The notes beneath the pieces are model-generated. The model was not told where the DNA came from, ran no database searches, and saw only the letters and a program-made list of their open reading frames with translations. This document shows positions 29,072 to 50,529 of a stretch of 64,000 nucleotides of DNA, piece after piece; within the stretch, counting starts at the first letter, position 1, and every line of letters begins with the position of its first letter. This DNA comes from a virus. The stretch is from positions 32,001-96,000 of the IMG/VR virus record IMGVR_UViG_3300032116_000013. One strand, 5' to 3'. The translations under genes were made by a program, and so were the position numbers.

Positions 29072-29200
29072 AATACTAAATAACGAACCAGCCGCACAAC
29101 CTTTCGGTGTAGTGTTTGTCGCACAGCGATGGCTGCTTTTGTAAAAGAGGAATCTAGGACGCATTGCGCAGTGCGTGACGATAGATGAACCGAAACCTTT

Positions 29201-39865: not shown

Positions 39866-40254
39866 TGGGCACTAATTATTATGTTGTTGAGAATGTTTGC
39901 GAATGCTGTAAGCGATACGATGAAAAGTATCACATTGGCAAGAAGTCCTATGGTTGGGCATTCTCATTCCAAGGTTACAAGTATGATGGTCTGACCACTT
40001 GGCAAAAGTGGAAAGAGTATCTTGTTGACAAAATTATCTACGATGAATATGGCGAACAGATTTCATTTGATAAGTTTGTTGAATTGATAGAAATTTATGG
40101 CAGACCAGGTTATGTGTTTGTGAATGAGTATCATCCACAAGGTCGCAAGGTGAAGGTTCACAACGAAGAAGGTCGTAAGGAAGGCTGGTTCAATCCAGAG
40201 TGGGATTGGGATGACCCAGAAGGTTATTCGTTCTGCTCAAGAGAGTTTAGTTAG
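39865..40254 (+). CDS. hypothetical protein
   Basis: MGTNYY...HIGKKSYGWAF. Confidence 0.7.
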   Translation: MGTNYYVVENVCECCKRYDEKYHIGKKSYGWAFSFQGYKYDGLTTWQKWKEYLVDKIIYDEYGEQISFDKFVELIEIYGRPGYVFVNEYHPQGRKVKVHNEEGRKEGWFNPEWDWDDPEGYSFCSREFS

Positions 40255-40267
40255 CAGGAGTTGAGTG

Positions 40268-40687
40268 ATGAATGACCTAAATCTTGAAGGATTATCAGAC
40301 AAGCAACTGAGAATTTTTGCTGTGCGGTGTGCAAGACGAGTACAGCATCTGATGACTGACCCGAGGAGCGTTGCGGCACTTGATGTTGCCGAGCGTCACG
40401 CGAACGGACAGGCGACGGATGAGGAATTGAAAGTGGCATGGGATGCGGCGAATGCGGCGTGGGCTGCGGCGAATGCGGCGTGGGATGCGGCGCGGACTGC
40501 GGTGAGGGCTGCGGCGTTGGATGCGGCTGGGGCGGCGGCATCTTCAGCGCGGGATGCGGCGTGGTATGCGGCGTGGGCTACGGCTCGCCCAGCGGATGCG
40601 GCGCGGGCTGCGGGGGCTGCGGCGAGGGATGTTGAACGTGTTGAACAACAAAAGATTTTGGACGAGATTCGACAAGAGCAAATGTGA
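40268..40687 (+). CDS. Ala/Trp-repeat protein with Imm5-like N-terminus, copy 2
   Basis: Near-identical N- and C-termini to 34324-34671. Confidence 0.7.
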
Positions 40688-40941
40688 TGATCCGCGACGA
40701 CATTATCCGCATGGCGAGGGAGGCGGGCATCTGCACGGGAAACAGCATCCTGCTGCCTGCCCCTGACGGGCAAATCGAAGCACTTGAACGCTTCGCCGCC
40801 CTCGCTACGGCTGAGAAAAACAAAGAGATTGAGCGGCTACGGGAAGTGCTAAACAAACTTGAATACTTCTGCGATGGCACCATTAGGCGATATCCAGATG
40901 AACATGAAGTGGAAGTTGCACTGCGGAGAGAGGAGCAATGA
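40687..40941 (+). CDS. hypothetical protein
   Basis: RDDIIRMAREAG...ERFAALA. Confidence 0.65.
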   Translation: MIRDDIIRMAREAGICTGNSILLPAPDGQIEALERFAALATAEKNKEIERLREVLNKLEYFCDGTIRRYPDEHEVEVALRREEQ

Positions 40942-41249
40942 CCCGCGACGACATTATCGGATGGATGCAAGAAGTTGGAGCGAAGAAAAGCGATCTGACC
41001 CCGCAAACCTATGATGGGTTTGTTGATATTTTTCAACGATTCGCTGCCCTTGCTGCCGAGCGAGAAAGAGAGGCTTGCGCTCAGTTGCTAGAGTCTCTAA
41101 CACTGGCATACCCTGATAGTGGTAAATTCACAATTGAACAATGTGTAAGAGCAATCAGATTGCGCAGCGTAAATCCAGAAAGTTTTGTGATGCTAAATGC
41201 ACCAACGCCCTATAAGAAAGGGTTTTGGGATCAACCAGAAATAAAGTAA
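40938..41249 (+). CDS. hypothetical protein, paralogue of the previous gene
   Basis: RDDII...QRFAALAAERERE. Confidence 0.65.
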   Translation: MTRDDIIGWMQEVGAKKSDLTPQTYDGFVDIFQRFAALAAEREREACAQLLESLTLAYPDSGKFTIEQCVRAIRLRSVNPESFVMLNAPTPYKKGFWDQPEIK

Positions 41250-41462: not shown

Positions 41463-41643
41463 GCCACAATGCTTCACTGACTTTCAGTGGAAGATCTATC
41501 AGCAAGAATTGCAAGAAGTCAAGAACAGCAAGACACTTGACATTTGCTTCGATTGTACGGTAGAATATCAGAGTAAGATGCGCAAGGAAGGCAAGTGTGC
41601 TTTCCCGATGAAGCGTCTTGATAGAATTGCGGAGTATGCATGA
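41449..41643 (+). CDS. small Cys-containing protein
   Basis: C..CFDC...C. Confidence 0.55.
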   Translation: MHHSKPQCFTDFQWKIYQQELQEVKNSKTLDICFDCTVEYQSKMRKEGKCAFPMKRLDRIAEYA

Positions 41644-41792
41644 TCATTCTTCCATTGCTTGATCTTTTGTTTCTTGGCATTTCTATTTTTGGTGCCGTGT
41701 ACAATCGCGGAACAATTGTTGGTTGGATGTGCACGTTCTTGGTGTTCTGGCAAATTTGGATGTTGATAAAATTCTTCAGAGAACATCCTTGA
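41640..41792 (+). CDS. small two-TM protein (50 aa)
   Basis: Read by eye; ATGA overlap. Confidence 0.5.
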   Translation: MIILPLLDLLFLGISIFGAVYNRGTIVGWMCTFLVFWQIWMLIKFFREHP

Positions 41793-41945
41793 TTTTTTTG
41801 GAATTGTACTATATAATATTTACTGTAACAAATTTCCAAGCGTGATTCGCGACGCCCAAACATTCTTTTGGTAGGATGAAGCATCCCAAGGTGCCCTTAG
41901 TATTTTCCCTCCGCACCGAAAACAGCGACCTTTTTAGTGTAAGAA

Positions 41946-42007
41946 CGTAAGTTATTGATTCTATTAGGTTTTTTAGTCTTTACTTTTCGACGCTTGTAGG
42001 GCATAAT
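41946..42007 (+). promoter_or_regulatory. repeated early promoter cassette E, upstream of the tRNA array
   Basis: Motif plus TTTACT-17-CATAAT. Confidence 0.8.
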
Positions 42008-42186
42008 AGTTCTATAGAGTTGAGTAAGGAAAGAAATATTGAGTAGTCGATAAAAGCGACTCACAGTGCTGATGCGGAACGAGACTGCGCGAGAGCACTA
42101 TAATATCTCGCAAATGGGCGGACAGGAAACATGAACGGGATGGCGAAAACTCCCATAGTAAGACTCCTGATGATATATGTAATTTT

Positions 42187-42261
42187 GCCTTCATAGCACA
42201 ACGGTAGTGCAACTGATTTGTAATCAGTAGGTTGGGAGTTCAAATCTCTCTGAAGGCACCA
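42187..42261 (+). tRNA. tRNA-Thr(TGT)
   Basis: Cloverleaf, loop TTTGTAA, CCA. Confidence 0.9.
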
Positions 42262-42444
42262 TATTGAAGCGCATTAGTATCTGGCTTGGAGAATGCCTAG
42301 AATTAAAAGAGAGTGGCTCCTTATTAAGACTCTGGCTAGTGTGTTTCAATATGGTTATCCTGACTGCTACCAGAGGTTCGTAGTAGCGGAGACTGTCACC
42401 CCGAAGCATAGTGTGACGCTGGATTAGTAACCAGCATTTTTTGC

Positions 42445-42519
42445 GGACCCATCGTCTAACGGTTAGGACACATCCCTTTCACGGATGGAATAGGGATTCG
42501 AATTCCCTTGGGTTCACCA
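42445..42519 (+). tRNA. tRNA-Glu(TTC)
   Basis: Loop CTTTCAC, CCA. Confidence 0.9.
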
Positions 42520-42525
42520 GATTTT

Positions 42526-42611
42526 GCGTAGTTGTGTGAGTGGTTAAAACAGACAGACTGTAAATCTGTTGCCTTCGGGCTACGGTGGTTCGAATCCATC
42601 ACTACGCACCA
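42526..42611 (+). tRNA. tRNA-Tyr(GTA)
   Basis: Loop CTGTAAA, long variable arm, CCA. Confidence 0.9.
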
Positions 42612-42628
42612 ATTTTTGTTATGATTTT

Positions 42629-42702
42629 GGGACTGAAACATTAAAGTGATGTAACGGACTTTTAATCCGTAAAAGAGGGAGCGTTACCCTCCAGTCCTAC
42701 CA
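42629..42702 (+). tRNA. tRNA-Lys(TTT), atypical T-loop
   Basis: Loop CTTTTAA; T-loop AGCGTTA. Confidence 0.85.
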
Positions 42703-42709
42703 TACGTTC

Positions 42710-42785
42710 GGGTCTATCGTATAACGGTGATTATATCTGGCTCTTAACCAGTTTGATGCAGGTTCGAATCCTGCTAGACCCACCA
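42710..42785 (+). tRNA. tRNA-Lys(CTT)
   Basis: Loop CTCTTAA, CCA. Confidence 0.9.
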
Positions 42786-42789
42786 ATTT

Positions 42790-42863
42790 ATCTCGATGGT
42801 GTAATGGTAGCATACGAGTCTCCAAAACTCTTGGTTGCGGTTCGAGTCCGTATCGGGATACCA
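42790..42863 (+). tRNA. tRNA-Trp(CCA)
   Basis: Loop CTCCAAA, CCA. Confidence 0.9.
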
Positions 42864-42865
42864 TT

Positions 42866-42914
42866 CTGTCTCTGATGAGTCCGTAGGGACGAAACGCTGT
42901 GAAGCGTCAGACAG
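42866..42914 (+). ncRNA. type I hammerhead ribozyme
   Basis: Stem I CTGTCT/AGACAG; core CTGATGA; stem II GTCC/GGAC; GAA; stem III ACGC/GCGT; GTC triplet ending at 42908. Confidence 0.9.
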
Positions 42915-43286
42915 CAGCGCGACCTTGTGGTGTAGCGTGATGCAAAAAACACGTGGGGTAAAAAGTCCATCATTAAGTTGGGAAAATCCACCTCTGTTTA
43001 GGTGCTGAGATGTATCCGATAGAGCCTGTGCATGGGCTTGTGTAGGCATCCAAAGCAAAACCACACTTTTGAATTCAGATGCATAGGTTCCTCGCGACCT
43101 TAAAAGCGAGCGCGTAGCATGATAACGAACTCTCATGCAGGAGCGGTGGTTACTTACACCGCACGTATTTTAAAAAATTCGCGCACCCGAGAAAAAGTAA
43201 CCAATCTTCACTCGAGCCGATCGCAGGAATACTTGACCCATCCTTCACGCCAACCAATACTGCGTGTAAACAACGGTCTCTTTTTT

Positions 43287-43361
43287 TGGCGTGTAGATCA
43301 GCGGTAGATCAAGTGACTGTTAATCACTCTGTCGTAGGTTCGATCCCTACCACGCCAGCCA
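43287..43361 (+). tRNA. tRNA-Asn(GTT)
   Basis: Loop CTGTTAA, CCA. Confidence 0.9.
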
Positions 43362-43547
43362 ACTTGGTGACATGCAAGAGCAGAATAATCTGCCTAGTAC
43401 CGTGTTCATCCGAATGTGTGATGGCTTGTCTGTTTGGGTAACACATTCGATATGAGGTGGAACAGAATAGATCATGCTGTGTGGGGGTATGATTGAGAAT
43501 AATTTAGTAGTGGGGATTCCCGCGAACGATAGCCCACACCATATTTT

Positions 43548-43621
43548 TGAGGGATAGATTAATGGCAGATCATCTGGCTTTGAACCAGAGAGTCGTGGTT
43601 CGAGTCCACGTCCCTCAGCCA
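43548..43621 (+). tRNA. tRNA-Gln(TTG)
   Basis: Loop CTTTGAA, CCA. Confidence 0.9.
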
Positions 43622-43633
43622 AAAACTAAAAAT

Positions 43634-43717
43634 GCGAGAGTGGCGGAACGGTATACGCGCTAGTCTTAGGAACTAGTACCGAAAGGTTTAAGAGTTCGAG
43701 TCTCTTCTCTCGCACCA
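43634..43717 (+). tRNA. tRNA-Leu(TAG)
   Basis: Loop CTTAGGA, long variable arm. Confidence 0.9.
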
Positions 43718-43734
43718 TTTTTGGAAATTATTTC

Positions 43735-43808
43735 GGGGATGTAGTTAAATGGGATAACTTCTGGTTTGCATCCAGAAATTGAGAGTTCGATTCTCTCCGT
43801 CTCCACCA
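43735..43808 (+). tRNA. tRNA-Ala(TGC)
   Basis: Loop TTTGCAT; G3:U70 pair. Confidence 0.9.
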
Positions 43809-44066
43809 TTTTTGTTATTCGTAAGCCATGGGTGATCGCAAAGCCCGAGTAACTGCGCCAAAAGAAAACTTCAGTTCTAGACACCTGAAGGTGAGACGCA
43901 GCAGATAGTGCGAATGACAATCTTTTTTGTTCACGTGTGTATGGTAACCCATATGTGATTAGCAGAAAAACCAAGCATATGCTAATGTACCTGATGTCCA
44001 TAGCAGACTTATGTCGAATAAGTCCAGCGCACAACTTGGAAATTGTGTGACGGTGAACAGCCTAAT

Positions 44067-44161
44067 TTGCGTCTAGTGTAATGGTAGCACAGGAAGTCCG
44101 AGACATCGCAAGATGGAGTAGGCATCAAAATGCCCAGACGTGGTTCGATTCCACGACGCAA
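44067..44161 (+). ncRNA. tRNA-like element lacking an anticodon arm and CCA
   Basis: TTGCGTC/GACGCAA stem, D-arm TAGTGTAATGGTAGCAC, T-loop GTTCGATT. Confidence 0.55.
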
Positions 44162-44418
44162 TCTAATATGCCCGAAGCCTCTGCAGCAATGTCGATCCAC
44201 TCTGTGTGGATCGCTGTACGCTTCGGCTATCTGACGTTCCGACTCATAATCGGATAGTGTGCGTCCGCACGATGAGAAGCGAGATCATGACTCGCAGGAC
44301 CTTACTCTTGGGTAGAGAAGAGCGTTGGCAATACGAAAATCTCCCTGTGGTGTGAAGCGGGTGGAAGGTGTAGAATTACACTACAATTACCGCCAGCAGG
44401 GGGAAGCAACTAATTTTT

Positions 44419-44507
44419 GGAAGTGTGGGTGAGTGGTTGTAAACCAACAGTCTTGAAAACTGTCTGTCCGCAAGGGCACGTAGGTTCGAATCCTACCACT
44501 TCCGCCA
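44419..44507 (+). tRNA. tRNA-Ser(TGA)
   Basis: Loop CTTGAAA, long variable arm. Confidence 0.9.
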
Positions 44508-44512
44508 AATTT

Positions 44513-44587
44513 GCGCGATTAACTCAGCGGTAGAGTAGCGCCTTTACACGGCGAATGTCGGGAGTTCAATCCTCTCATCGCGCACCA
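44513..44587 (+). tRNA. tRNA-Val(TAC)
   Basis: Loop TTTACAC. Confidence 0.9.
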
Positions 44588-44591
44588 TCTT

Positions 44592-44665
44592 GCCCCTTTA
44601 GTTCAATAGTAGAACACTAAACTGATAATTTAGAAACGGTGGAGCGTAACCACCAAGGGGCACCA
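44592..44665 (+). tRNA. tRNA-Ile(GAT), atypical T-loop
   Basis: Loop CTGATAA; T-loop AGCGTAA. Confidence 0.85.
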
Positions 44666-44670
44666 ATTAC

Positions 44671-44746
44671 GGTGGCTGTCGTCAAGTGGTTAAGACCATG
44701 GGTTGTGATCCCATTATCGTGGGTTCGATCCCCACCAGTCACCCCA
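44671..44746 (+). tRNA. tRNA-His(GTG)
   Basis: Loop TTGTGAT; G-1:C73. Confidence 0.9.
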
Positions 44747-44750
44747 TCTT

Positions 44751-44826
44751 GCGCTCGTAGTCTAGAGGATGAGGCATCTGCCTTCTAAGCAGATTAACGC
44801 AGGTTCGAGTCCTGCCGAGCGCGCCA
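44751..44826 (+). tRNA. tRNA-Arg(TCT)
   Basis: Loop CTTCTAA. Confidence 0.9.
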
Positions 44827-44827
44827 A

Positions 44828-44901
44828 GCCTCTTTAGTTCAATAGCAGAACACATTCTTGGTAAGGATGAAACGATGGAGCGTAACCATCATGAGGCACC
44901 A
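44828..44901 (+). tRNA. tRNA-Thr(GGT), atypical T-loop
   Basis: Loop TTGGTAA; T-loop AGCGTAA; one acceptor mismatch. Confidence 0.8.
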
Positions 44902-44906
44902 ATTTC

Positions 44907-44986
44907 GGCTCTTGGGACTGCATGGTGTGGTCGCTCGCCTGTCACGCGAGATATTCAGATGGGATCGTTACCCATAAGAGTCGCCA
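44907..44986 (+). tRNA. tRNA-Asp(GTC), atypical T-loop
   Basis: Loop CTGTCAC; T-loop ATCGTTA. Confidence 0.85.
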
Positions 44987-44991
44987 TATTT

Positions 44992-45079
44992 GGAAGGTTG
45001 GCAGAGCGGTGATTGCAAGAGTTTGCTAAACTCTCGTCCAGCAATGGGCGCATAGGTTCGAATCCTATACCTTCCGCCA
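44992..45079 (+). tRNA. tRNA-Ser(GCT)
   Basis: Loop TTGCTAA, long variable arm. Confidence 0.9.
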
Positions 45080-45084
45080 TTTTT

Positions 45085-45160
45085 GGCAGTGTAGCATAGC
45101 GGCTAATGCGGCACCTTCATACGGTGAAGATCGTGTGTTCGAATCACACCACTGCTACCA
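45085..45160 (+). tRNA. tRNA with CAT anticodon (Met or Ile2)
   Basis: Loop TTCATAC; G1:U72. Confidence 0.85.
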
Positions 45161-45164
45161 ATTT

Positions 45165-45239
45165 GCTGCTTTAACTGAGATAGATTAGTGCGAGTCTGAA
45201 GAACTCGATAGGTTGGTGCGATACCAACAGGCAGCACCA
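45165..45239 (+). tRNA. tRNA-Phe(GAA), atypical T-loop
   Basis: Loop CTGAAGA; T-loop TGCGATA. Confidence 0.85.
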
Positions 45240-45323
45240 ATCGCGACGACCCACTATCGTTAACAGTGGCGCTGCACCCAGAAGCGAGAGAAGAACCATG
45301 GTGGATCGACTGGGATTTGTTTT

Positions 45324-45398
45324 GCCCCTATAGTGAAATGGAGATCACGCGATGCTACGAACGTCGTATTCCAGGTTCGAGTCCTGGTAGGGGTGCCA
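45324..45398 (+). tRNA. tRNA-Arg(ACG)
   Basis: Loop CTACGAA. Confidence 0.9.
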
Positions 45399-45411
45399 AC
45401 TAAATATATGC

Positions 45412-45723
45412 ATGAACATGAATTTACAAAAAACACTACAAACATTTGCTGCGATTGCTGGAGCAATTTCCATCATCATCGTCGCATATGAATGGGTTGC
45501 CAGTAAACAATATGTTCAGCAAGCGACTGATCCAATTTCAAAAGATGTCAAACAAATTCTAGCGATTGGCATTGCGGATCAGATCAGCACACTTCACCGT
45601 TATAATTGCAACAATCCAGATGATGATCAGTTTGTGAGTCTAATGCGTGAAAAGAAATTGAAATTTGCAGAACTTACAGGGCGCGAATATATGGAAGTGC
45701 CTTGTGATAAGTTATCGAATTAA
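45412..45723 (+). CDS. single-TM hypothetical protein inside the tRNA array
   Basis: N-terminal TM, two Cys; CTAAATA upstream. Confidence 0.65.
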   Translation: MNMNLQKTLQTFAAIAGAISIIIVAYEWVASKQYVQQATDPISKDVKQILAIGIADQISTLHRYNCNNPDDDQFVSLMREKKLKFAELTGREYMEVPCDKLSN

Positions 45724-45725
45724 TT

Positions 45726-45800
45726 GTTGCGGTGGCTGAGAAGTGAGGCGACAGTCTGCAAAACTGTTCTATGCAGGTGCGAGTCCTGTCCGCAACTCCA
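45726..45800 (+). tRNA. tRNA-Cys(GCA), atypical T-loop
   Basis: Loop CTGCAAA; U73; T-loop TGCGAGT. Confidence 0.85.
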
Positions 45801-45813
45801 TTTAGAGATCGTT

Positions 45814-46041
45814 ATGAAAAAATACATTCATGTGAATCAACATGTGATTCGATCAAACAAAAAGAACAACGAAAACAATCCTGTCTTGACTATCAAGGAA
45901 GGCAGGAAGAATACCTATTGTCATCGAGTCAAGATTCATGGACCCAGTGAGGTAGTTTATTCTGGCAATGAAAAATTATTGCTGCCTTGTGGCGCGAGAG
46001 TTGCCGTAGTCACTGAAAGTGAGATAGAAATTATAGAATGA
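45814..46041 (+). CDS. conserved phage hypothetical protein
   Basis: IHVNQH.IR.N...CGAR motif. Confidence 0.7.
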   Translation: MKKYIHVNQHVIRSNKKNNENNPVLTIKEGRKNTYCHRVKIHGPSEVVYSGNEKLLLPCGARVAVVTESEIEIIE

Positions 46042-46042
46042 C

Positions 46043-46133
46043 GCTCCTGTAGTGTAATGTAGCACGACGGGACTTATAATCCCGAACTCCAGATTAGAGG
46101 TTAGTCTTGGTTCAAGTCCAAGCAGGAGCACCA
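46043..46133 (+). tRNA. tRNA-Ile(TAT) with long variable region
   Basis: CGGGA-CTTATAA-TCCCG arm, about 21-nt variable region, CCA. Confidence 0.8.
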
Positions 46134-46139
46134 AGTTTT

Positions 46140-46216
46140 GCGCCTATAGCATAATTGGTTAATGCAGCAAACTCATAATTTGTTGATTCTAGGTTCAAGT
46201 CCTAGTGGGCGCACCA
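46140..46216 (+). tRNA. tRNA with CAT anticodon (Met or Ile2)
   Basis: Loop CTCATAA. Confidence 0.88.
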
Positions 46217-46254
46217 GTTGACTTTTGAGACTAGATATAGTAAGATATAACAAT

Positions 46255-46331
46255 CGGACAGTAGCACAGCCTGGTAGTGCATCTGCTTTGGGAGCAGAGG
46301 GTCGGAGGTTCGAATCCTCTCTGTCCGACCA
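46255..46331 (+). tRNA. tRNA-Pro(TGG)
   Basis: Loop TTTGGGA. Confidence 0.9.
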
Positions 46332-46336
46332 TTTTT

Positions 46337-46420
46337 GCGATTGTGGTGGAATCGGTATACACAACAGACTTAAAATCTGTCGGCAATGCCATGTCGGTTC
46401 GAGTCCGACCAGTCGCACCA
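46337..46420 (+). tRNA. tRNA-Leu(TAA)
   Basis: Loop CTTAAAA, long variable arm. Confidence 0.9.
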
Positions 46421-46424
46421 GAAT

Positions 46425-46498
46425 GCGGGATTAGTTTAATGGTAAAACTAAAGTTTTCCAAACTTTCGTCATCAGTTCGATTCTGATATCCCGCTCCA
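46425..46498 (+). tRNA. tRNA-Gly(TCC)
   Basis: Loop TTTCCAA; U73. Confidence 0.88.
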
Positions 46499-46513
46499 CT
46501 TTAGAGTAAAGTT

Positions 46514-46999
46514 ATGTATGTATTTGACGGAGTCCTAGATCCAGATTTATTGCAAAAATTCAAAATAAAAATTGAAGACCATTTTATGCAAATGGTTTCT
46601 AAAAATTACAATAAATCAGATTTTTATCCTACAAGAAACATAATGATGAATTCTGATGATTTGGTTGTAAAATTAACTAAAGATTTTTTAGAATCAAAAT
46701 TAAAAATTAAATTAAACTGTTATCAATTTGAACTTCAGACTTGGCCAGTAGAAATTTTTTCATCACTGCATAAACATGATACTGGAATAAGATCGCGTGG
46801 AGATTATAATAGCATACTCTATCTAAATGATAATTTTGATGGTGGCGAATTTTATACTGAAAATGGAATTACTATAAAACCGAAAACTAATAGATTAATT
46901 TTATTTGATGGTAAAAATATAAACCATGGCGTTAAAACAGTAAGAAAAAATCACAGATACACAATGATTTTTTGGTGGGAAAACACACAATTCTATTAA
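46514..46999 (+). CDS. 2OG-Fe(II) oxygenase (prolyl-4-hydroxylase-like)
   Basis: HKHD, ILYLND.F.GGE, HGV, R YT. Confidence 0.85.
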   Translation: MYVFDGVLDPDLLQKFKIKIEDHFMQMVSKNYNKSDFYPTRNIMMNSDDLVVKLTKDFLESKLKIKLNCYQFELQTWPVEIFSSLHKHDTGIRSRGDYNSILYLNDNFDGGEFYTENGITIKPKTNRLILFDGKNINHGVKTVRKNHRYTMIFWWENTQFY

Positions 47000-47011
47000 A
47001 GGAATATCCAT

Positions 47012-47719
47012 ATGCATCCAAGTGCACTTTTAACAGGTGAAGATTTCTTTCTGACATATGCTGCAGAACTAAATGAACCAACTGTAGTTGAAATTGGTTC
47101 TCAAAATATCAACGGTTCACTTAGAGATGTTGCTACAAATAATGTCAAGAAGTATGTTGGTCTTGATTTTGCTGAAGGCGTCGGAGTCGATATAGTCTTG
47201 ACTGATGCATACAAATATCCTCTAGAAGATAATTCATTTGATATTCTTGTAACTTCCTCTTGCCTAGAACATTCTGAAATGTTTTGGCTGTCTTTTCTAG
47301 AAGGAATGAGAATTTTAAAGGACGACGGCATCATGTACATCAATGCTCCATCAGCATGGATGATGTATCATAGGTTTCCAGTTGACTGTTGGCGATTTTG
47401 GCCAGATGCTGGAAAGGCACTAGAAACTTGGGCTAGATATAATAAAATGAATTCAATGGTTCTAGAGTCTTATGTTTGCCCCCCAGGACCTGGAGAATAT
47501 GTAGCAGATTTTGTTTGTGTTATGCTGAAAAACGCAGATTATGTGAACAAATATCCAAATAGAATGATAGACTCTTTGGTTGAATCTCATCAATTTTTTA
47601 ATGGATTCAGATTCCCTAAGAATGAAAAATTCCCGCATGGATGGGATAAACCTACTGCAGAGCGTAAGCAGGATATTCTTTTGACTAATAATAATGGAAT
47701 AGGATTCAATATCAGATAA
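47012..47719 (+). CDS. class I SAM-dependent methyltransferase
   Basis: VVEIGS..NG, YVGLD...GVD, LEH, P.DCWRF. Confidence 0.85.
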   Translation: MHPSALLTGEDFFLTYAAELNEPTVVEIGSQNINGSLRDVATNNVKKYVGLDFAEGVGVDIVLTDAYKYPLEDNSFDILVTSSCLEHSEMFWLSFLEGMRILKDDGIMYINAPSAWMMYHRFPVDCWRFWPDAGKALETWARYNKMNSMVLESYVCPPGPGEYVADFVCVMLKNADYVNKYPNRMIDSLVESHQFFNGFRFPKNEKFPHGWDKPTAERKQDILLTNNNGIGFNIR

Positions 47720-47726
47720 AATTTTC

Positions 47727-47801
47727 GCGGAAGTAGCACAGGGGTAGTGCTTTTGCTTGCCAAGCAAAAGGTCGTGGGTTCAAATCCCATCTTCCGCTCC
47801 A
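47727..47801 (+). tRNA. tRNA-Gly(GCC)
   Basis: Loop TTGCCAA; U73. Confidence 0.9.
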
Positions 47802-47902: not shown

Positions 47903-48286
47903 ATGCTTCAAAACAAATATAATATTTCAATCTGGCAAGGTTCCACGTTTAATTTGTCCATTACTGTGCAAGATAATGATGGCTCAAATTTAGACTTGAA
48001 CACCTTTTCTGCTAGAATGCAAATTCGACCAAGTTACGATTCAGGTTCAATAGCAGAATCGCTAACAAGCGCAAATGGTGAAATAACAATAACTGGTAAT
48101 CTAGGTAAACTTGATCTAGAACTTCCTGCAGAAAGAACTTCAAATATCTATGTTGATCTTTCATCTACAACAAAACCACCTAAAAATACATACGTCTATG
48201 ATCTAGAGTTAGTAGACAATTCAACAAATACAGTCACTAAACTTATGTTTGGCGATGCAGTCGTTTATGGTGAAGTCACGCGATGA
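47903..48286 (+). CDS. tail/baseplate-associated Ig-like protein
   Basis: I.QG.TF...A.MQIR...YVYDLEL pattern. Confidence 0.65.
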   Translation: MLQNKYNISIWQGSTFNLSITVQDNDGSNLDLNTFSARMQIRPSYDSGSIAESLTSANGEITITGNLGKLDLELPAERTSNIYVDLSSTTKPPKNTYVYDLELVDNSTNTVTKLMFGDAVVYGEVTR

Positions 48287-50529
48287 CAATTCAAGTATCT
48301 TCTATAGTTGAAACTGGCAATACCATAACAGTTGTTGCTTCAACAACTGGTACCACAGTTACTGTCCAAGATTCAGGATATCGTGGACCTAAAGGCGCAC
48401 AAGGTACACAGGGTGTTCAAGGTACACAGGGTGAAACTGGTTCGCAAGGTACAGGTGGATCAGGTTTTACATGGAGAGGTCCATGGAACTCTTCAACAGT
48501 ATATTTAATTAATGATGCTGTAGAATATCAAAATTCGTCATATGTTGCTATTACAAATCACAGTAACGACGCGCCTCCTGGAACTAATTGGAATCTGATT
48601 GCCAAGGTTGGATCGCAAGGCACTCAGGGCGTATTTGGTGCACAAGGAACTCAAGGTCTAGATGGTCTCTTTGCTGGTCAAGGTGCTACTGGTACTCAAG
48701 GTGTACAAGGTAGAACTGGGGCGCAAGGTACTATTGGCGCCCAAGGAACAACTGGAACTCAAGGCTCAGTTGGAACTCAAGGCACATTCGGAACACAAGG
48801 AACAACTGGTTCGCAAGGCATTCAAGGAGTCCAAGGCACTACTGGAACACAAGGAACATTTGGTGTTCAAGGAACGCAAGGAACGCAAGGAACGCAAGGG
48901 TTTGATGGCATTCAAGGCGCACAAGGGTTTCAAGGAGAGCGTGGTGACTTCGGCGGCGCATCTTTCTATTATAAATTTTTAACCAAAACTGATTCCAATG
49001 ATCCTGGTCCAGGAAAGTTAAATCTAAATGCTATAAATTTTTCATCTGCCACAAATCTATCAATTGATGATATAGATAGAAACAGCACTGATATTTCTAA
49101 CTTCCTACAAACTGTTGACGATTCAACGAGTTCGATAAAAGGAACAATCAAACTTACAGAAGAAGCGAATACATTAAATTTCGTAATACTTCACATCGTT
49201 GGAACTCACACAGAGGATCAACATCACTTTGACATTCCCGTTGCATATGTCAATGGTACAACAACACCATATGCAAACAACTCTGATATTATTATATCTT
49301 TCGCCGTTACAGGCAACAAAGGTGATACTGGCGTTCAAGGAACTATAGGATCTCAAGGTCTTTCAGGAACGCAAGGATTTTTTGGAACTCAAGGATCTGT
49401 TGGCTCGCAGGGAACGCAAGGAGTCCAAGGAGAAATAGGTTCTCAAGGATTTACTGGTACTCAGGGCACTCAAGGATTGTTAGGTATTCAAGGAGTCCAA
49501 GGAGAAATAGGCTCTCAGGGTTTCACAGGAAGCCAAGGGTTTACTGGGTCTCAAGGTTTACTTGGCTCGCAGGGAACTCAGGGAACAACTGGATCTCAAG
49601 GAACAACAGGCTCTCAGGGTTTCACAGGAAGCCAAGGGTTTACTGGATCTCAAGGTCAGACTGGTTCGCAAGGAACTCAGGGTCTACTTGGTTCGCAGGG
49701 TTTAACTGGCTCACAGGGTTTAACTGGTTCAGGTTCTCAAGGTATTCAAGGTCCTTCTGGTACTGGTGGCGGATCAGCCATCACAGTGAAAGACGAAGGA
49801 ACAACGATCACGACTTCTTTGGCAAGTTTAGATTTTGTTGGGGTTGGAGTTCAAGCGACAAATGTTGGAAATGATGTTACTGTAACGATAACTGGTGGAT
49901 CAGGCTCTCAAGGCACAACAGGATCTCAAGGTGTTCAAGGTACAACAGGATCTCAAGGCTTTACTGGAAGCCAAGGGTTTACTGGGTCTCAAGGATTCAC
50001 TGGATCGCAAGGTCTAAATGGTTCTCAAGGTTTAACTGGATCACAAGGTTTAACTGGATCAGGCTCTCAAGGATTACAGGGTATTCAGGGACCATCTGGT
50101 GGTGGAGGTGGTGGAGGCGGTCTATCCACTTTCCCAGTGAGTGCAAACTCAGGATCAACTATAACTGCGAATGGTCTAAACTTCATAAATACTTCATCTA
50201 TTCTAGTTTCAGTAGGATCAGGTGAAACTGGAAATGCTAATGTATCATTTGTAGTATACAATAGCAACGTCAGTAGTAATGTTGAAAACTCATTTGAAAC
50301 AGTTAGTAAGAATCTAAGAGCATATGATGCAACACTAACTTATACTTCTGGATCATTAACCAGCATCGCATATACAGTTCCAGCCGTTGGAACAATAACA
50401 AAAACATTAAATTATACTAATGGTGTTCTGACGTCGATAGTTCTATCTGGAAGCACACCAGGTGGAATTGAATTGACTAAGACTTTGACTTATACTAATG
50501 GAATATTAACAGGGTTCAGTTACTCATAA
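48283..50529 (+). CDS. collagen-like tail fibre protein
   Basis: Several G-x-Q triplet tracts; C-terminal TLTYT.G.LT repeats. Confidence 0.8.
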   Translation: MTIQVSSIVETGNTITVVASTTGTTVTVQDSGYRGPKGAQGTQGVQGTQGETGSQGTGGSGFTWRGPWNSSTVYLINDAVEYQNSSYVAITNHSNDAPPGTNWNLIAKVGSQGTQGVFGAQGTQGLDGLFAGQGATGTQGVQGRTGAQGTIGAQGTTGTQGSVGTQGTFGTQGTTGSQGIQGVQGTTGTQGTFGVQGTQGTQGTQGFDGIQGAQGFQGERGDFGGASFYYKFLTKTDSNDPGPGKLNLNAINFSSATNLSIDDIDRNSTDISNFLQTVDDSTSSIKGTIKLTEEANTLNFVILHIVGTHTEDQHHFDIPVAYVNGTTTPYANNSDIIISFAVTGNKGDTGVQGTIGSQGLSGTQGFFGTQGSVGSQGTQGVQGEIGSQGFTGTQGTQGLLGIQGVQGEIGSQGFTGSQGFTGSQGLLGSQGTQGTTGSQGTTGSQGFTGSQGFTGSQGQTGSQGTQGLLGSQGLTGSQGLTGSGSQGIQGPSGTGGGSAITVKDEGTTITTSLASLDFVGVGVQATNVGNDVTVTITGGSGSQGTTGSQGVQGTTGSQGFTGSQGFTGSQGFTGSQGLNGSQGLTGSQGLTGSGSQGLQGIQGPSGGGGGGGGLSTFPVSANSGSTITANGLNFINTSSILVSVGSGETGNANVSFVVYNSNVSSNVENSFETVSKNLRAYDATLTYTSGSLTSIAYTVPAVGTITKTLNYTNGVLTSIVLSGSTPGGIELTKTLTYTNGILTGFSYS

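Follow-up and report, generated by a model that had tools for sequence, protein, structure and literature searches.

What lies between the tRNA genes of a phage tRNA array: coding sequence, spacer or further RNA genes? We addressed this question in an uncultured, T4-like phage of 197 kb from freshwater (a lake), using a window of 64,000 nt, by which we mean the whole stretch of DNA that was analysed. ARAGORN finds 24 tRNAs at 42187-46498, all on the + strand, and the Rfam tRNA model adds three more (42629-42699, 44828-44898 and 45165-45236). The array thus holds 27 tRNAs, every one with an encoded CCA (27/27), and two small protein genes. As gaps we took all stretches of more than 80 nt within 42008-45323 that were left after adding the three Rfam tRNAs:

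Six gaps: 42008-42186, 42262-42444, 42864-43286, 43362-43547, 43809-44418 and 45240-45323, in sum 1,665 nt.

This sum agrees with the initial annotation, which had estimated roughly 1.7 kb without a credible open reading frame. A PHROG search of eight gap ORFs on either strand gave no family match, and homologues of the gaps carry indels of 1, 2, 13 and 16 nt. Since such indels are not multiples of three, the gaps are non-coding. Their borders resemble those of the tRNAs, as had also been claimed: 5-7 of the 8 nt upstream of each post-gap tRNA are T, compared to a regional T fraction of 0.28, which argues that the T-rich boundaries are real, and module ends are marked by U-rich linkers as tRNA ends are.

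What, then, do the gaps contain? As far as sequence comparison can tell, they contain a series of separately conserved, folded RNAs. We count about a dozen discrete structured modules, in line with the proposal of the initial annotation; they are non-coding, measure 50-190 nt in this array, share the strand of the tRNAs and follow a single promoter-like element. Most of them recur in tRNA arrays of other phages in the same slot: S2b after tRNA-Thr and before tRNA-Glu, family A after tRNA-Asn, S5a after tRNA-Ala and S1b before the first tRNA. Module combinations differ between phage contigs, hence the modules are separable units. The features are, with L numbers standing for loci used in comparison:

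41946-42007, + strand: promoter-like element (TTTACT, 17 nt, CATAAT) with a conserved block upstream
42063-42175, + strand: leader module S1b, between promoter and first tRNA
42259-42354, + strand: clamp-stem cassette S2a, recognised by inverted repeat, fold z and recurrence
42355-42444, + strand: module S2b, three hairpins and then a U-run, in the tRNA-Thr/tRNA-Glu slot
42866-42914, + strand: type I hammerhead motif (Rfam Hammerhead_1, intact core), 2 nt past tRNA-Trp
42913-42944, + strand: tail hairpin, conserved alongside the hammerhead in L160 and L183
43040-43172, + strand: module S3b, ending in the invariant hairpin GCGGUGG-UUACUUA-CACCGC and a U-run
43173-43286, + strand: S3c, the tail of gap 3
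43359-43545, + strand: family A RNA (model R2, covariation), starting on the tRNA-Asn CCA
43811-43923, + strand: module S5a, directly 3' of tRNA-Ala, closed by a 12-bp stem
43924-44158, + strand: window-specific insertion of 235 nt
44067-44161, + strand: tRNA-like element with a cloverleaf-like predicted fold (acceptor, D and T arms)
44165-44233, + strand: long hairpin S5h, directly before family B
44232-44411, + strand: family B RNA (model R1, covariation)
45240-45323, + strand: gap 6 (S6)

Folding energies of single sequences contribute little to this picture. Whole gaps reach fold z values of only -0.2 to -2.3 against shuffles. Among single modules, S5h stands at -5.7 (0/200 shuffles were as stable), the clamp stem at -3.0 and the insertion at -2.25 (43926-44065); the others are near -1 to -2, including S1b (-1.2) and S6 (-1.0). 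For most modules single-sequence folding is no better than shuffles. The closed multi-hairpin units of the initial annotation are seen by eye and in predicted folds, but only some pieces exceed shuffles. Among the grounds for doubt that the annotation had itself named were missing covariation and folding no better than shuffles: covariation was found, foremost in families A and B, whereas folding exceeds shuffles in only some modules. The structural support, read from alignments, is conservation and covariation in other phage contigs, and for S1b, S2b, S3b and S5a it comes from only 3-5 sequences each.

Family B is predicted to be an RNA of about 180-260 nt; besides eight helices it has at least one pseudoknot and a GA-rich internal loop that resembles a kink-turn. 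Model R1 finds a single copy in the window (112.8 bits, E 2e-39) and 66 matches in IMG/VR contigs, of which 54 are distinct. In the alignment of these 54, 98.1% of cells are paired and compensatory changes occur in 34 of 42 pairs; none of 500 shuffles reached the observed pairing, and slid controls gave 34-49%. The pseudoknot covaries too, with the four variants ACCC:GGGU, GGUCC:GGACC, ACGC:GCGU and CAC:GUG. Family A, predicted at about 165-185 nt with a 3' H-type pseudoknot, has one copy in the window (model R2, 128.5 bits, E 1e-26). Its 18 distinct homologues show 96% of cells paired and 15 of 29 pairs compensated, again with 0/500 shuffles reaching the observed value (slid controls 27-54% paired), and the pseudoknot helix is 100% paired with three compensated pairs. 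No Rfam match to family B was obtained in the window, nor, with E up to 10, over its copies in 11 further loci. Neither of these two pseudoknotted families is in Rfam. Family B was not found in the bacterial genome sample examined; all its copies come from viral contigs. At 40 of 49 family B loci tRNAs lie within 3 kb, and all 506 of these tRNAs share the strand of the RNA; 22 members have a tRNA at most 30 nt downstream. Outside tRNA arrays, the genes downstream of family B share no common family.

It might be argued that all modules, families A and B included, are cis-only spacers which aid tRNA folding and cutting and are then degraded, with no function of their own. Each module does keep a fixed slot beside a particular tRNA, the CCA end of tRNA-Thr forms part of the clamp stem, and a hammerhead together with U-rich linkers suggests processing. 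However, in the 18 sequences of family A and the 54 of family B long unpaired stretches and loops stay invariant (GAUGAGAAG, the loop UGGCAAU, the tail GAAGCA), and both families maintain their pseudoknots, which exceeds what insulation requires. Moreover, nine of the 49 family B members have no tRNA within 3 kb. We therefore regard spacers alone as a rather unlikely explanation.

Among the smaller modules, S1b has 70-76% identity in L131, L129 and L180; the copies of L131 and L129 precede the first tRNA detected there. Inspection by eye, in only four sequences, shows compensatory variation in its closing stem (AGUGY/RCACU) and in the hairpin whose loop reads AACGAGR. S2a consists of a stalk of about 17-20 bp, beginning on the tRNA-Thr CCA, around a variable insert (inverted repeat 42258-42277/42336-42355, 85% complementary). 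The stalk CCAUAUUGAAGC...GCUUCAAUAUGG recurs in L037, L115, L126, L127, L149, L163, L174, L175 and L177, with inserts that vary in length and with several copies in some loci. S2b is found at 83-91% identity in L164, L152/L169, L108 and L119, in the tRNA-Thr/tRNA-Glu gap of L164 and L152 and directly 5' of tRNA-Glu in L108; 3 of its 21 predicted pairs are compensated. S3b is kept in L160 (76%) and L117, with a tRNA directly 3' in both loci, and its inner hairpin covaries (CUCGC/GCGAG, CCAGU/ACUGG, UCCC/GGGA). S5a follows tRNA-Ala in L037 (90% identity) and L160 (80%), with 3 of 31 predicted pairs compensated in three sequences. L037, L153, L177 and L164 have a shorter version of the hairpin S5h with conserved outer arms. 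For S3c and S6 no homologues were found among about 180 loci. The same holds for the insertion 43924-44158, which is missing from the otherwise collinear gap of L037.

Are the modules decoys, cut in place of the tRNAs when host defences such as anticodon nucleases attack tRNAs? Two features might point that way. Helix H1 of family B in the window has a 5-bp stem and the loop CUCAUAA, which matches a tRNA-Met anticodon loop perfectly, and in the tRNA-like element at 44067-44161 three small hairpins replace the anticodon arm. But the Met-like loop is confined to a few close relatives (L035, L131, L171 and L175), while most family B members have CUAAUCA and one subclass carries a different hairpin at this place; the tRNA-like element belongs to the window-specific insertion that has no homologue, and no defence or counter-defence gene is linked. 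It is thus highly improbable that the modules serve as decoys. The tRNA-like element was also considered as a true tRNA and rejected: it has no encoded CCA, no anticodon arm of 5 bp and 7 nt and no Rfam tRNA match, and ARAGORN calls it only at a 90% threshold, in a form whose anticodon stem is mismatched and which includes an 'intron' of 27 nt.

Behind tRNA-Trp, the hammerhead that the initial annotation had assumed turned out to be complete: it is a type I motif, and two of its stems show compensatory changes. Rfam Hammerhead_1 (RF00163) matches at full length with 30.5 bits (E 1e-5 in a 431-nt search), slightly below its gathering score of 34, and the larger Rfam search (41800-46600) kept only a partial Hammerhead_3 match of 25 bits there. 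The core CUGAUGA...GAAA...GUC is intact (CUGAUGA 42872-42878, GAA 42891-42893, A42894 paired with U42907, and C42908). It is identical in L160, and in L183 N7 is G; N7 is a core position where variation is allowed. The predicted fold has stems I, II and III. Comparing the window, L160 and L183, three sequences only, GUCC/GGAC of stem II becomes GUUC/GAAC, ACGC/GCGU of stem III becomes ACGU/ACGU, and stem I is invariant. By core and helices we class 42866-42914 as a type I hammerhead, although it scores below the gathering threshold; the cut is predicted between C42908 and A42909. With type I hammerheads (RF00163) it shares the full core, three stems, the GUC triplet and an open stem I. It differs in a stem I of only 6 bp, in showing no evident loop-loop tertiary contact and in the conserved hairpin that follows, which resembles the core of the COG2908 RNA motif (weak Rfam match of 18.8 bits, the gathering score being 58.7).

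Small self-cleaving ribozymes behind phage tRNAs have a precedent in the HDV-like theta ribozymes, which lie directly behind the tRNA and have been proposed to process its 3' trailer (Kienbeck et al. 2024, PMC10879173); the main text of that study does not mention hammerheads. The ribozyme here, recognised from its sequence motif, is placed similarly but is of the hammerhead class, is predicted to cut 45 nt behind the CCA and not at it, and comes from a freshwater phage, whereas theta ribozymes come from phages of the mammalian gut. Family B might itself take the role proposed for theta ribozymes. Sixteen of 49 members begin at most 10 nt from a tRNA 3' end, the model begins 2 nt after a CCA, the complex fold includes a pseudoknot and junction nucleotides that do not vary, and the hammerhead suggests that ribozymes are used in this operon. 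Against this, about two thirds of the members do not abut a tRNA, the window copy follows a hairpin, the topology is in our reading unlike the nested double pseudoknot of HDV-like ribozymes, and we see neither an Rfam ribozyme match nor an evident conserved cleavage-site context. A theta-like role of family B is therefore very unlikely.

The initial annotation also considered one large scaffold RNA carrying the tRNAs. GOLLD and ROOL are ornate, pseudoknotted RNAs of phages and prophages without known function, often found beside tRNA islands; many GOLLD members exceed 800 nt, and the GOLLD linker can hold tRNAs (PMC12286853). The modules described here are far smaller and independent of each other. 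ROOL measures about 500-600 nt, and GOLLD and ROOL each form one single unit. We scanned the whole window with Rfam at gathering score and 41800-46600 at E up to 5. The models for GOLLD, ROOL, tmRNA and RNase P RNA, which the initial annotation had listed for such a scan, gave no match at any threshold used, nor did those for HDV-like/theta, twister, pistol and hatchet ribozymes in 41800-46600 at E up to 5. Complementarity between gaps is limited to 12-20-mers at chance level and tRNA-derived repeats, and relatives gain and lose modules independently, in differing combinations. A single giant scaffold of the GOLLD/ROOL type is for these reasons next to inconceivable.

How might the array be expressed? 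The initial annotation placed one early promoter ahead of it, and as a sequence feature this holds. A consensus promoter scan places the match at 41979-42007, and the 70-nt promoter element (41946-42015, ending in the CATAAT -10 box) has at least seven copies on the + strand of the window, with no further copy within the array in the window scan; related phages have several copies per locus. The element at 41946-42007 is likely to be the start of the tRNA operon transcript. Parts of the gaps occur in contigs of four freshwater RNA libraries at a depth of only 2-13; these parts include 43827-44232, without difference, and 44295-44408. As the contigs also reach DNA upstream of the promoter, carry-over DNA is possible. 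Two modules end in a hairpin and U-run that scored as terminator-like, one being S2b with its final hairpin and T-run, and the single-transcript picture could break there.

We infer co-transcription, the processing enzymes and the stability and function of the products from these sequence features. Probably one early transcript is cut into tRNAs and autonomous small RNAs, whatever the function of the latter. Transcription would begin just past the CATAAT box, near 42014. Host enzymes might free the tRNAs, RNase E at the U-rich linkers and RNase P at tRNA 5' ends, with 3' exonucleases trimming to the encoded CCA; RNase III may cleave the clamp stem, and the hammerhead would contribute a single self-cut, 45 nt 3' of tRNA-Trp. 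The remaining products would be compact small RNAs shielded by closing stems and pseudoknots. We read families A and B as stable RNAs that act in trans, with a defined tertiary fold and some partner, which would make them counterparts of the stable RNAs of T4 and T5. The clamp stem, S2b, S3b, S5a and S5h are more likely punctuation that would insulate tRNA folding and guide processing.

By position the array resembles the T4 and T5 clusters, in which non-coding RNA genes stand in line with tRNAs. The T4 record annotates species 1 (rnaC, 139 nt) and species 2 (rnaD, 119 nt) as stable RNAs without assigned function, in agreement with the initial annotation. These are likewise small non-coding RNAs arranged head-to-tail with tRNAs on one strand of a T4-type cluster, and the 3' part of rnaC is tRNA-like (T arm), somewhat like the element at 44067-44161. 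However, T4 has two such RNAs compared to about twelve modules here, and families A and B are larger and pseudoknotted. T5 has eight annotated stable RNAs with unassigned function (RNAI, RNAIII, RNAIV, RNA1, RNA2, RNA2H, RNA3 and RNAX), some of them tRNA-like; as here, they are interleaved with tRNAs, in a cluster that also holds small ORFs and homing endonuclease genes. T5 differs in having many internal promoters, while the present array has only a single copy of the repeated element ahead of it. At the annotated stable RNAs of T4 and T5 (L185, L293) neither R1, with filters off, nor R2 gave a match; the only R1 match in the T4 stretch is weak and partial (19.4 bits) and lies within the segB gene.

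Finally, family B, at about 190 nt, could be a new functional RNA class that takes part in phage tRNA metabolism as a catalyst or within an RNP, a speculative suggestion to which we give little weight. If it were true, family B might be a ribozyme that frees or remodels the adjoining tRNA, or might serve a phage enzyme as its RNA subunit. Lake T4-like phages would then have an RNA-based tRNA-processing toolkit of their own, made up of families A and B, the hammerhead and the clamp-stem cassettes.

The gaps of the tRNA array at 42008-45323 are best read as a patchwork in which RNA genes alternate with elements for processing, and as neither junk nor one giant RNA. The source record, a 197,424-bp IMG/VR virus of which the window takes up bases 32001-96000, is rated complete by CheckV, and among cultured phages a neighbouring protein is closest, at ~30% identity, to those of T4-like phages of Caulobacter, Sinorhizobium and Stenotrophomonas. 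ARAGORN placed 24 tRNAs on the + strand from 42187 to 46498, the Rfam tRNA model added three more (42629-42699, 44828-44898 and 45165-45236), and CCA is encoded by all 27 tRNAs of the array. Once the tRNAs from both sources are taken out, six gaps of more than 80 nt are left inside the array region, with a sum of 1,665 nt. Each long gap is closed by a T-rich tract (of its final 8 nt, 5-7 are T), as are the short inter-tRNA linkers, in agreement with the T-rich spacers described in the initial annotation. The single early promoter proposed there ahead of the array also holds as a sequence feature: a 70-nt promoter-like element ending in a CATAAT -10 box, of which the window has at least seven copies, lies at 41946-42015, and no other copy falls within the array. 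Related phages have several copies of this element per locus. Two later gaps, outside the array region considered here, contain small ORFs (listed bounds 45412-45723 and 45724-46041), the second of which matches phrog_8676 across its last ~75 residues.

Some further features of the tRNAs and their surroundings were noted. In a subgroup of the tRNAs (Lys-UUU, Ile-GAU, Thr-GGU, Phe-GAA and partly Asp) the T loop is non-canonical and reads AGCGUAA, AGCGUUA or UGCGAUA where UUCGAAU is usual; these lie at 42629-42702, 44592-44665, 44828-44901 and 45165-45239 (also 44907-44986). Three of these odd tRNAs escape ARAGORN at its default threshold, and such T loops are also present in relatives (L115, a locus from another contig). 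Ile-GAU and Thr-GGU are paralogues, 79% identical, and by eye both have a D loop without the GG pair as well. Upstream, at 40200-41000, G+C rises to 0.59-0.65 for ~700 nt, with the rest of the region near 0.40-0.45; this stretch overlaps an ORF at 40265-40687 (phrog_18326, function not annotated). Directly after the array come an endonuclease-like gene (phrog_2297, phrog_274; 46514-46999), whose G+C falls to 0.26-0.31 as expected for a mobile homing-type insert, a SAM-dependent methyltransferase-like gene (47012-47719) and a further tRNA-Gly at 47727. In a related viral contig ARAGORN found a tmRNA gene (L039:15380-15735, tag peptide ending in ALAA) a few kb from the tRNA array.

The gaps are non-coding. 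Eight candidate gap ORFs on both strands gave no PHROG match, and homologous gaps of other phages show indels of 1, 2, 13 and 16 nt. In folding against shuffled controls three single modules stand out, with z -5.7 for a hairpin at 44165-44233, -3.0 for the clamp stem and -2.25 for the insertion, but no others, and whole gaps reached z values of only -0.2 to -2.3. Judged by shuffling and nothing else, the finding would seem weak; it is the comparative evidence that decides. At gathering scores Rfam 15 had no match in the gaps, and at E up to 5 it gave only a weak hammerhead and a weak COG2908-like match. GOLLD, ROOL, tmRNA and RNase P, which had been suggested as candidates, gave no Rfam 15 match in the gaps, nor did HDV-like ribozymes. 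When the whole stretch, gap 3 (42864-43286), gap 5 (43809-44418) and one typical member of the RNA family B described below were compared by blastn, in near and distant mode, with 50,697 GenBank phage records, the tRNAs alone matched.

Relatives were found with the small ORF 45724-46041, which as a query led to 80 IMG/VR loci, ~10 of them with a collinear tRNA array, and by pattern scans, in which the gap behind tRNA-Asn yielded 13 loci and the 3' portion of the one behind tRNA-Ala yielded 74. The tail-fibre gene at 48283-50529 was rejected for this purpose; it brought unrelated collagen-repeat loci only. The elements recognized in the gaps are as follows.

42063-42175, leader (S1b), ahead of the first tRNA in both judgeable loci
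42259-42354, clamp stem (S2a), a stalk of ~17-20 bp beginning on the CCA of tRNA-Thr
42355-42444, smaller conserved module (S2b), recurring in the slot between tRNA-Thr and tRNA-Glu
42866-42914, hammerhead motif
43040-43172, smaller conserved module (S3b), recurring in two loci; its inner hairpin covaries and its terminal hairpin is invariant
43359-43545, family A RNA
43811-43923, smaller conserved module (S5a), after tRNA-Ala in three phages
43924-44158, insertion private to this phage, with a tRNA-like element inside
44232-44411, family B RNA

The observation of structured modules in the gaps is real. The first structure of family B, a hand annotation on 14 sequences, has 96.6% of cells paired and 24 compensated pairs, and an independent MAFFT/RNAalifold run, earlier than the model-fitted alignment, gave 18 compensated pairs. 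The covariance model R1, derived from the hand annotation, found one copy in the window (112.8 bits, E 2e-39) and 66 copies in viral loci, 54 of them distinct. In the R1-fitted alignment both-side changes occur in 34 of 42 pairs and 98.1% of cells are paired, figures that are flattered by the fitting of the alignment to the model; none of 500 shuffles reached the observed pairing and slid controls gave 34-49%. The helix 2 loop forms a pseudoknot with the strand that follows helix 3, and this pairing covaries in four versions (ACCC:GGGU, GGUCC:GGACC, ACGC:GCGU and CAC:GUG). A second one, between GGUU and the AACC of the helix 4 loop, is possible but tentative, since none of its pairs varies and the GGACC subclass does not evidently have it. 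The UGAUG/UGAUG strands of helix 8 look like a candidate kink-turn.

Family B mostly occurs near tRNAs. In 40 of 49 loci tRNAs lie within 3 kb, and all 506 of these tRNAs share the strand of the RNA; 16 members start at most 10 nt from a tRNA end and 22 have a tRNA at most 30 nt downstream. Nine members are found among small co-directional genes without a common family. A role as cis-regulator was considered and rejected, as the genes that follow eight members located away from tRNA arrays have no family in common (two of these genes are MazG-like). The family B motif occurs in 107 stretches of 185,579 bacterial and archaeal species genomes, about the chance number, and R1 recognized no member in the 80 of these to which it was applied. 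In the relatives L028:9745-9830, L030, L033 and L035, family B is followed by a further conserved module of ~85 nt (CGCUGGAUGUGGCGAGCAGUAAUGUGUCGCC...CAUCCAGCAC), which occurs also in L153 and is absent from the window.

Family A overlaps the CCA of tRNA-Asn at its start; in most relatives the next gene is tRNA-Ala. Its model R2 has 18 distinct members, with one copy in the window. Its pseudoknot joins a hairpin loop, GCGUGGG, to the CCCACGC at the 3' end; this helix, which was put in place of a weak predicted helix before scoring, is 100% paired. With it, 96% of cells are paired and 15 of 29 pairs are compensated, matched by 0 of 500 shuffles, and in two members the terminal helix is exchanged wholesale (GUAAC/GUUAC). 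Both families show the covariation among homologues for which the initial annotation had asked. No Rfam family overlaps the RNA in 11 other family B loci, and a literature search on family B by topic words and literal sequence strings found no paper. Both families appear to be undescribed in Rfam 15 and in the searchable literature. IMG/VR has also been mined in bulk for structured RNAs, with 8,495 candidates catalogued (PMC10690425), and these may include families A and B.

Among the smaller modules, the stalk sequence of the clamp stem recurs around different inserts in at least nine further loci, some of which have several copies. The tRNA-like element of the insertion is without anticodon arm and without CCA, and 43173-43286 and 45240-45323 have no homologue among the fetched loci. 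At the start of the leader in gap 1 (42033-42046) we noted by eye an 11-mer, AUAUUGAGUAG, in common with T4 rnaC (species 1 RNA; L185:2937-2975, minus strand, L185 being the T4 stretch); a hairpin follows AUAUUGAGUAG in both, possibly by chance.

The hammerhead begins 2 nt downstream of tRNA-Trp. In a short search the Rfam type I model gave a full-length match of 30.5 bits, below the gathering score of 34 (E 1e-5). Its core is complete, with a predicted cut between C42908 and A42909, and two relatives (L160 and L183) keep the core and show compensatory changes in stems II and III. A conserved COG2908-like hairpin follows the hammerhead in three of three loci (window, L160, L183). The segment after the hammerhead, 42913-42944, resembles a truncated COG2908 RNA, and a strong Rfam COG2908 match lies far from the array at 29090-29134 (+; 72.7 bits vs a gathering score of 58.7). 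Theta ribozymes, which are HDV-like and come from gut phages, adjoin phage tRNAs as well (PMC10879173) and set a precedent; here a predicted hammerhead stands behind the tRNA, which would be another ribozyme class in a niche lately described for theta ribozymes.

Of the words sampled from the stretch, half or more are present in each of 14 DNA runs. Most of these runs come from fresh water, some from aquaculture, wastewater or estuary, and two are labelled 'fungus metagenome'; six RNA runs have a smaller share. Contigs from four freshwater metatranscriptomes include pieces of gaps 1-5, in some cases without differences, at a low depth of 2-13. They may stem from carry-over DNA, as they also span 41586-41750 and 41961-42111, ahead of the presumed start.

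As to how these RNAs are organized, one large scaffold RNA had been offered as an alternative to a set of small RNAs. There are no long-range inverted repeats between the gaps, and module combinations vary among phages. Both observations, drawn from sequence comparison, favour separate units over one scaffold. GOLLD and ROOL share the niche of the gap RNAs but differ in sequence, size and unity.

The tRNA clusters of T4 and T5 have held stable RNAs without explained function for about fifty years. Two are annotated within the tRNA region of T4 and eight in that of T5, none with an assigned function. The layout here is of the same kind, and this kind of thing is known already from these phages; however, T4 rnaC and rnaD and the eight T5 stable RNAs are matched by neither R1 nor R2. 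In conclusion, the array presents the T4/T5 phenomenon on a larger scale and in testable form, with two new well-supported pseudoknotted families and a recurrent clamp stem that pairs with the CCA end of a tRNA. With more than 50 distinct members, family B offers enough material for structure work and suits probing, cryo-EM and a partner search. For annotation, the 'empty' gaps of phage tRNA arrays should count as RNA genes. Should the gap RNAs prove to act in trans or to serve in processing, they would bear on phage tRNA maturation and protection.
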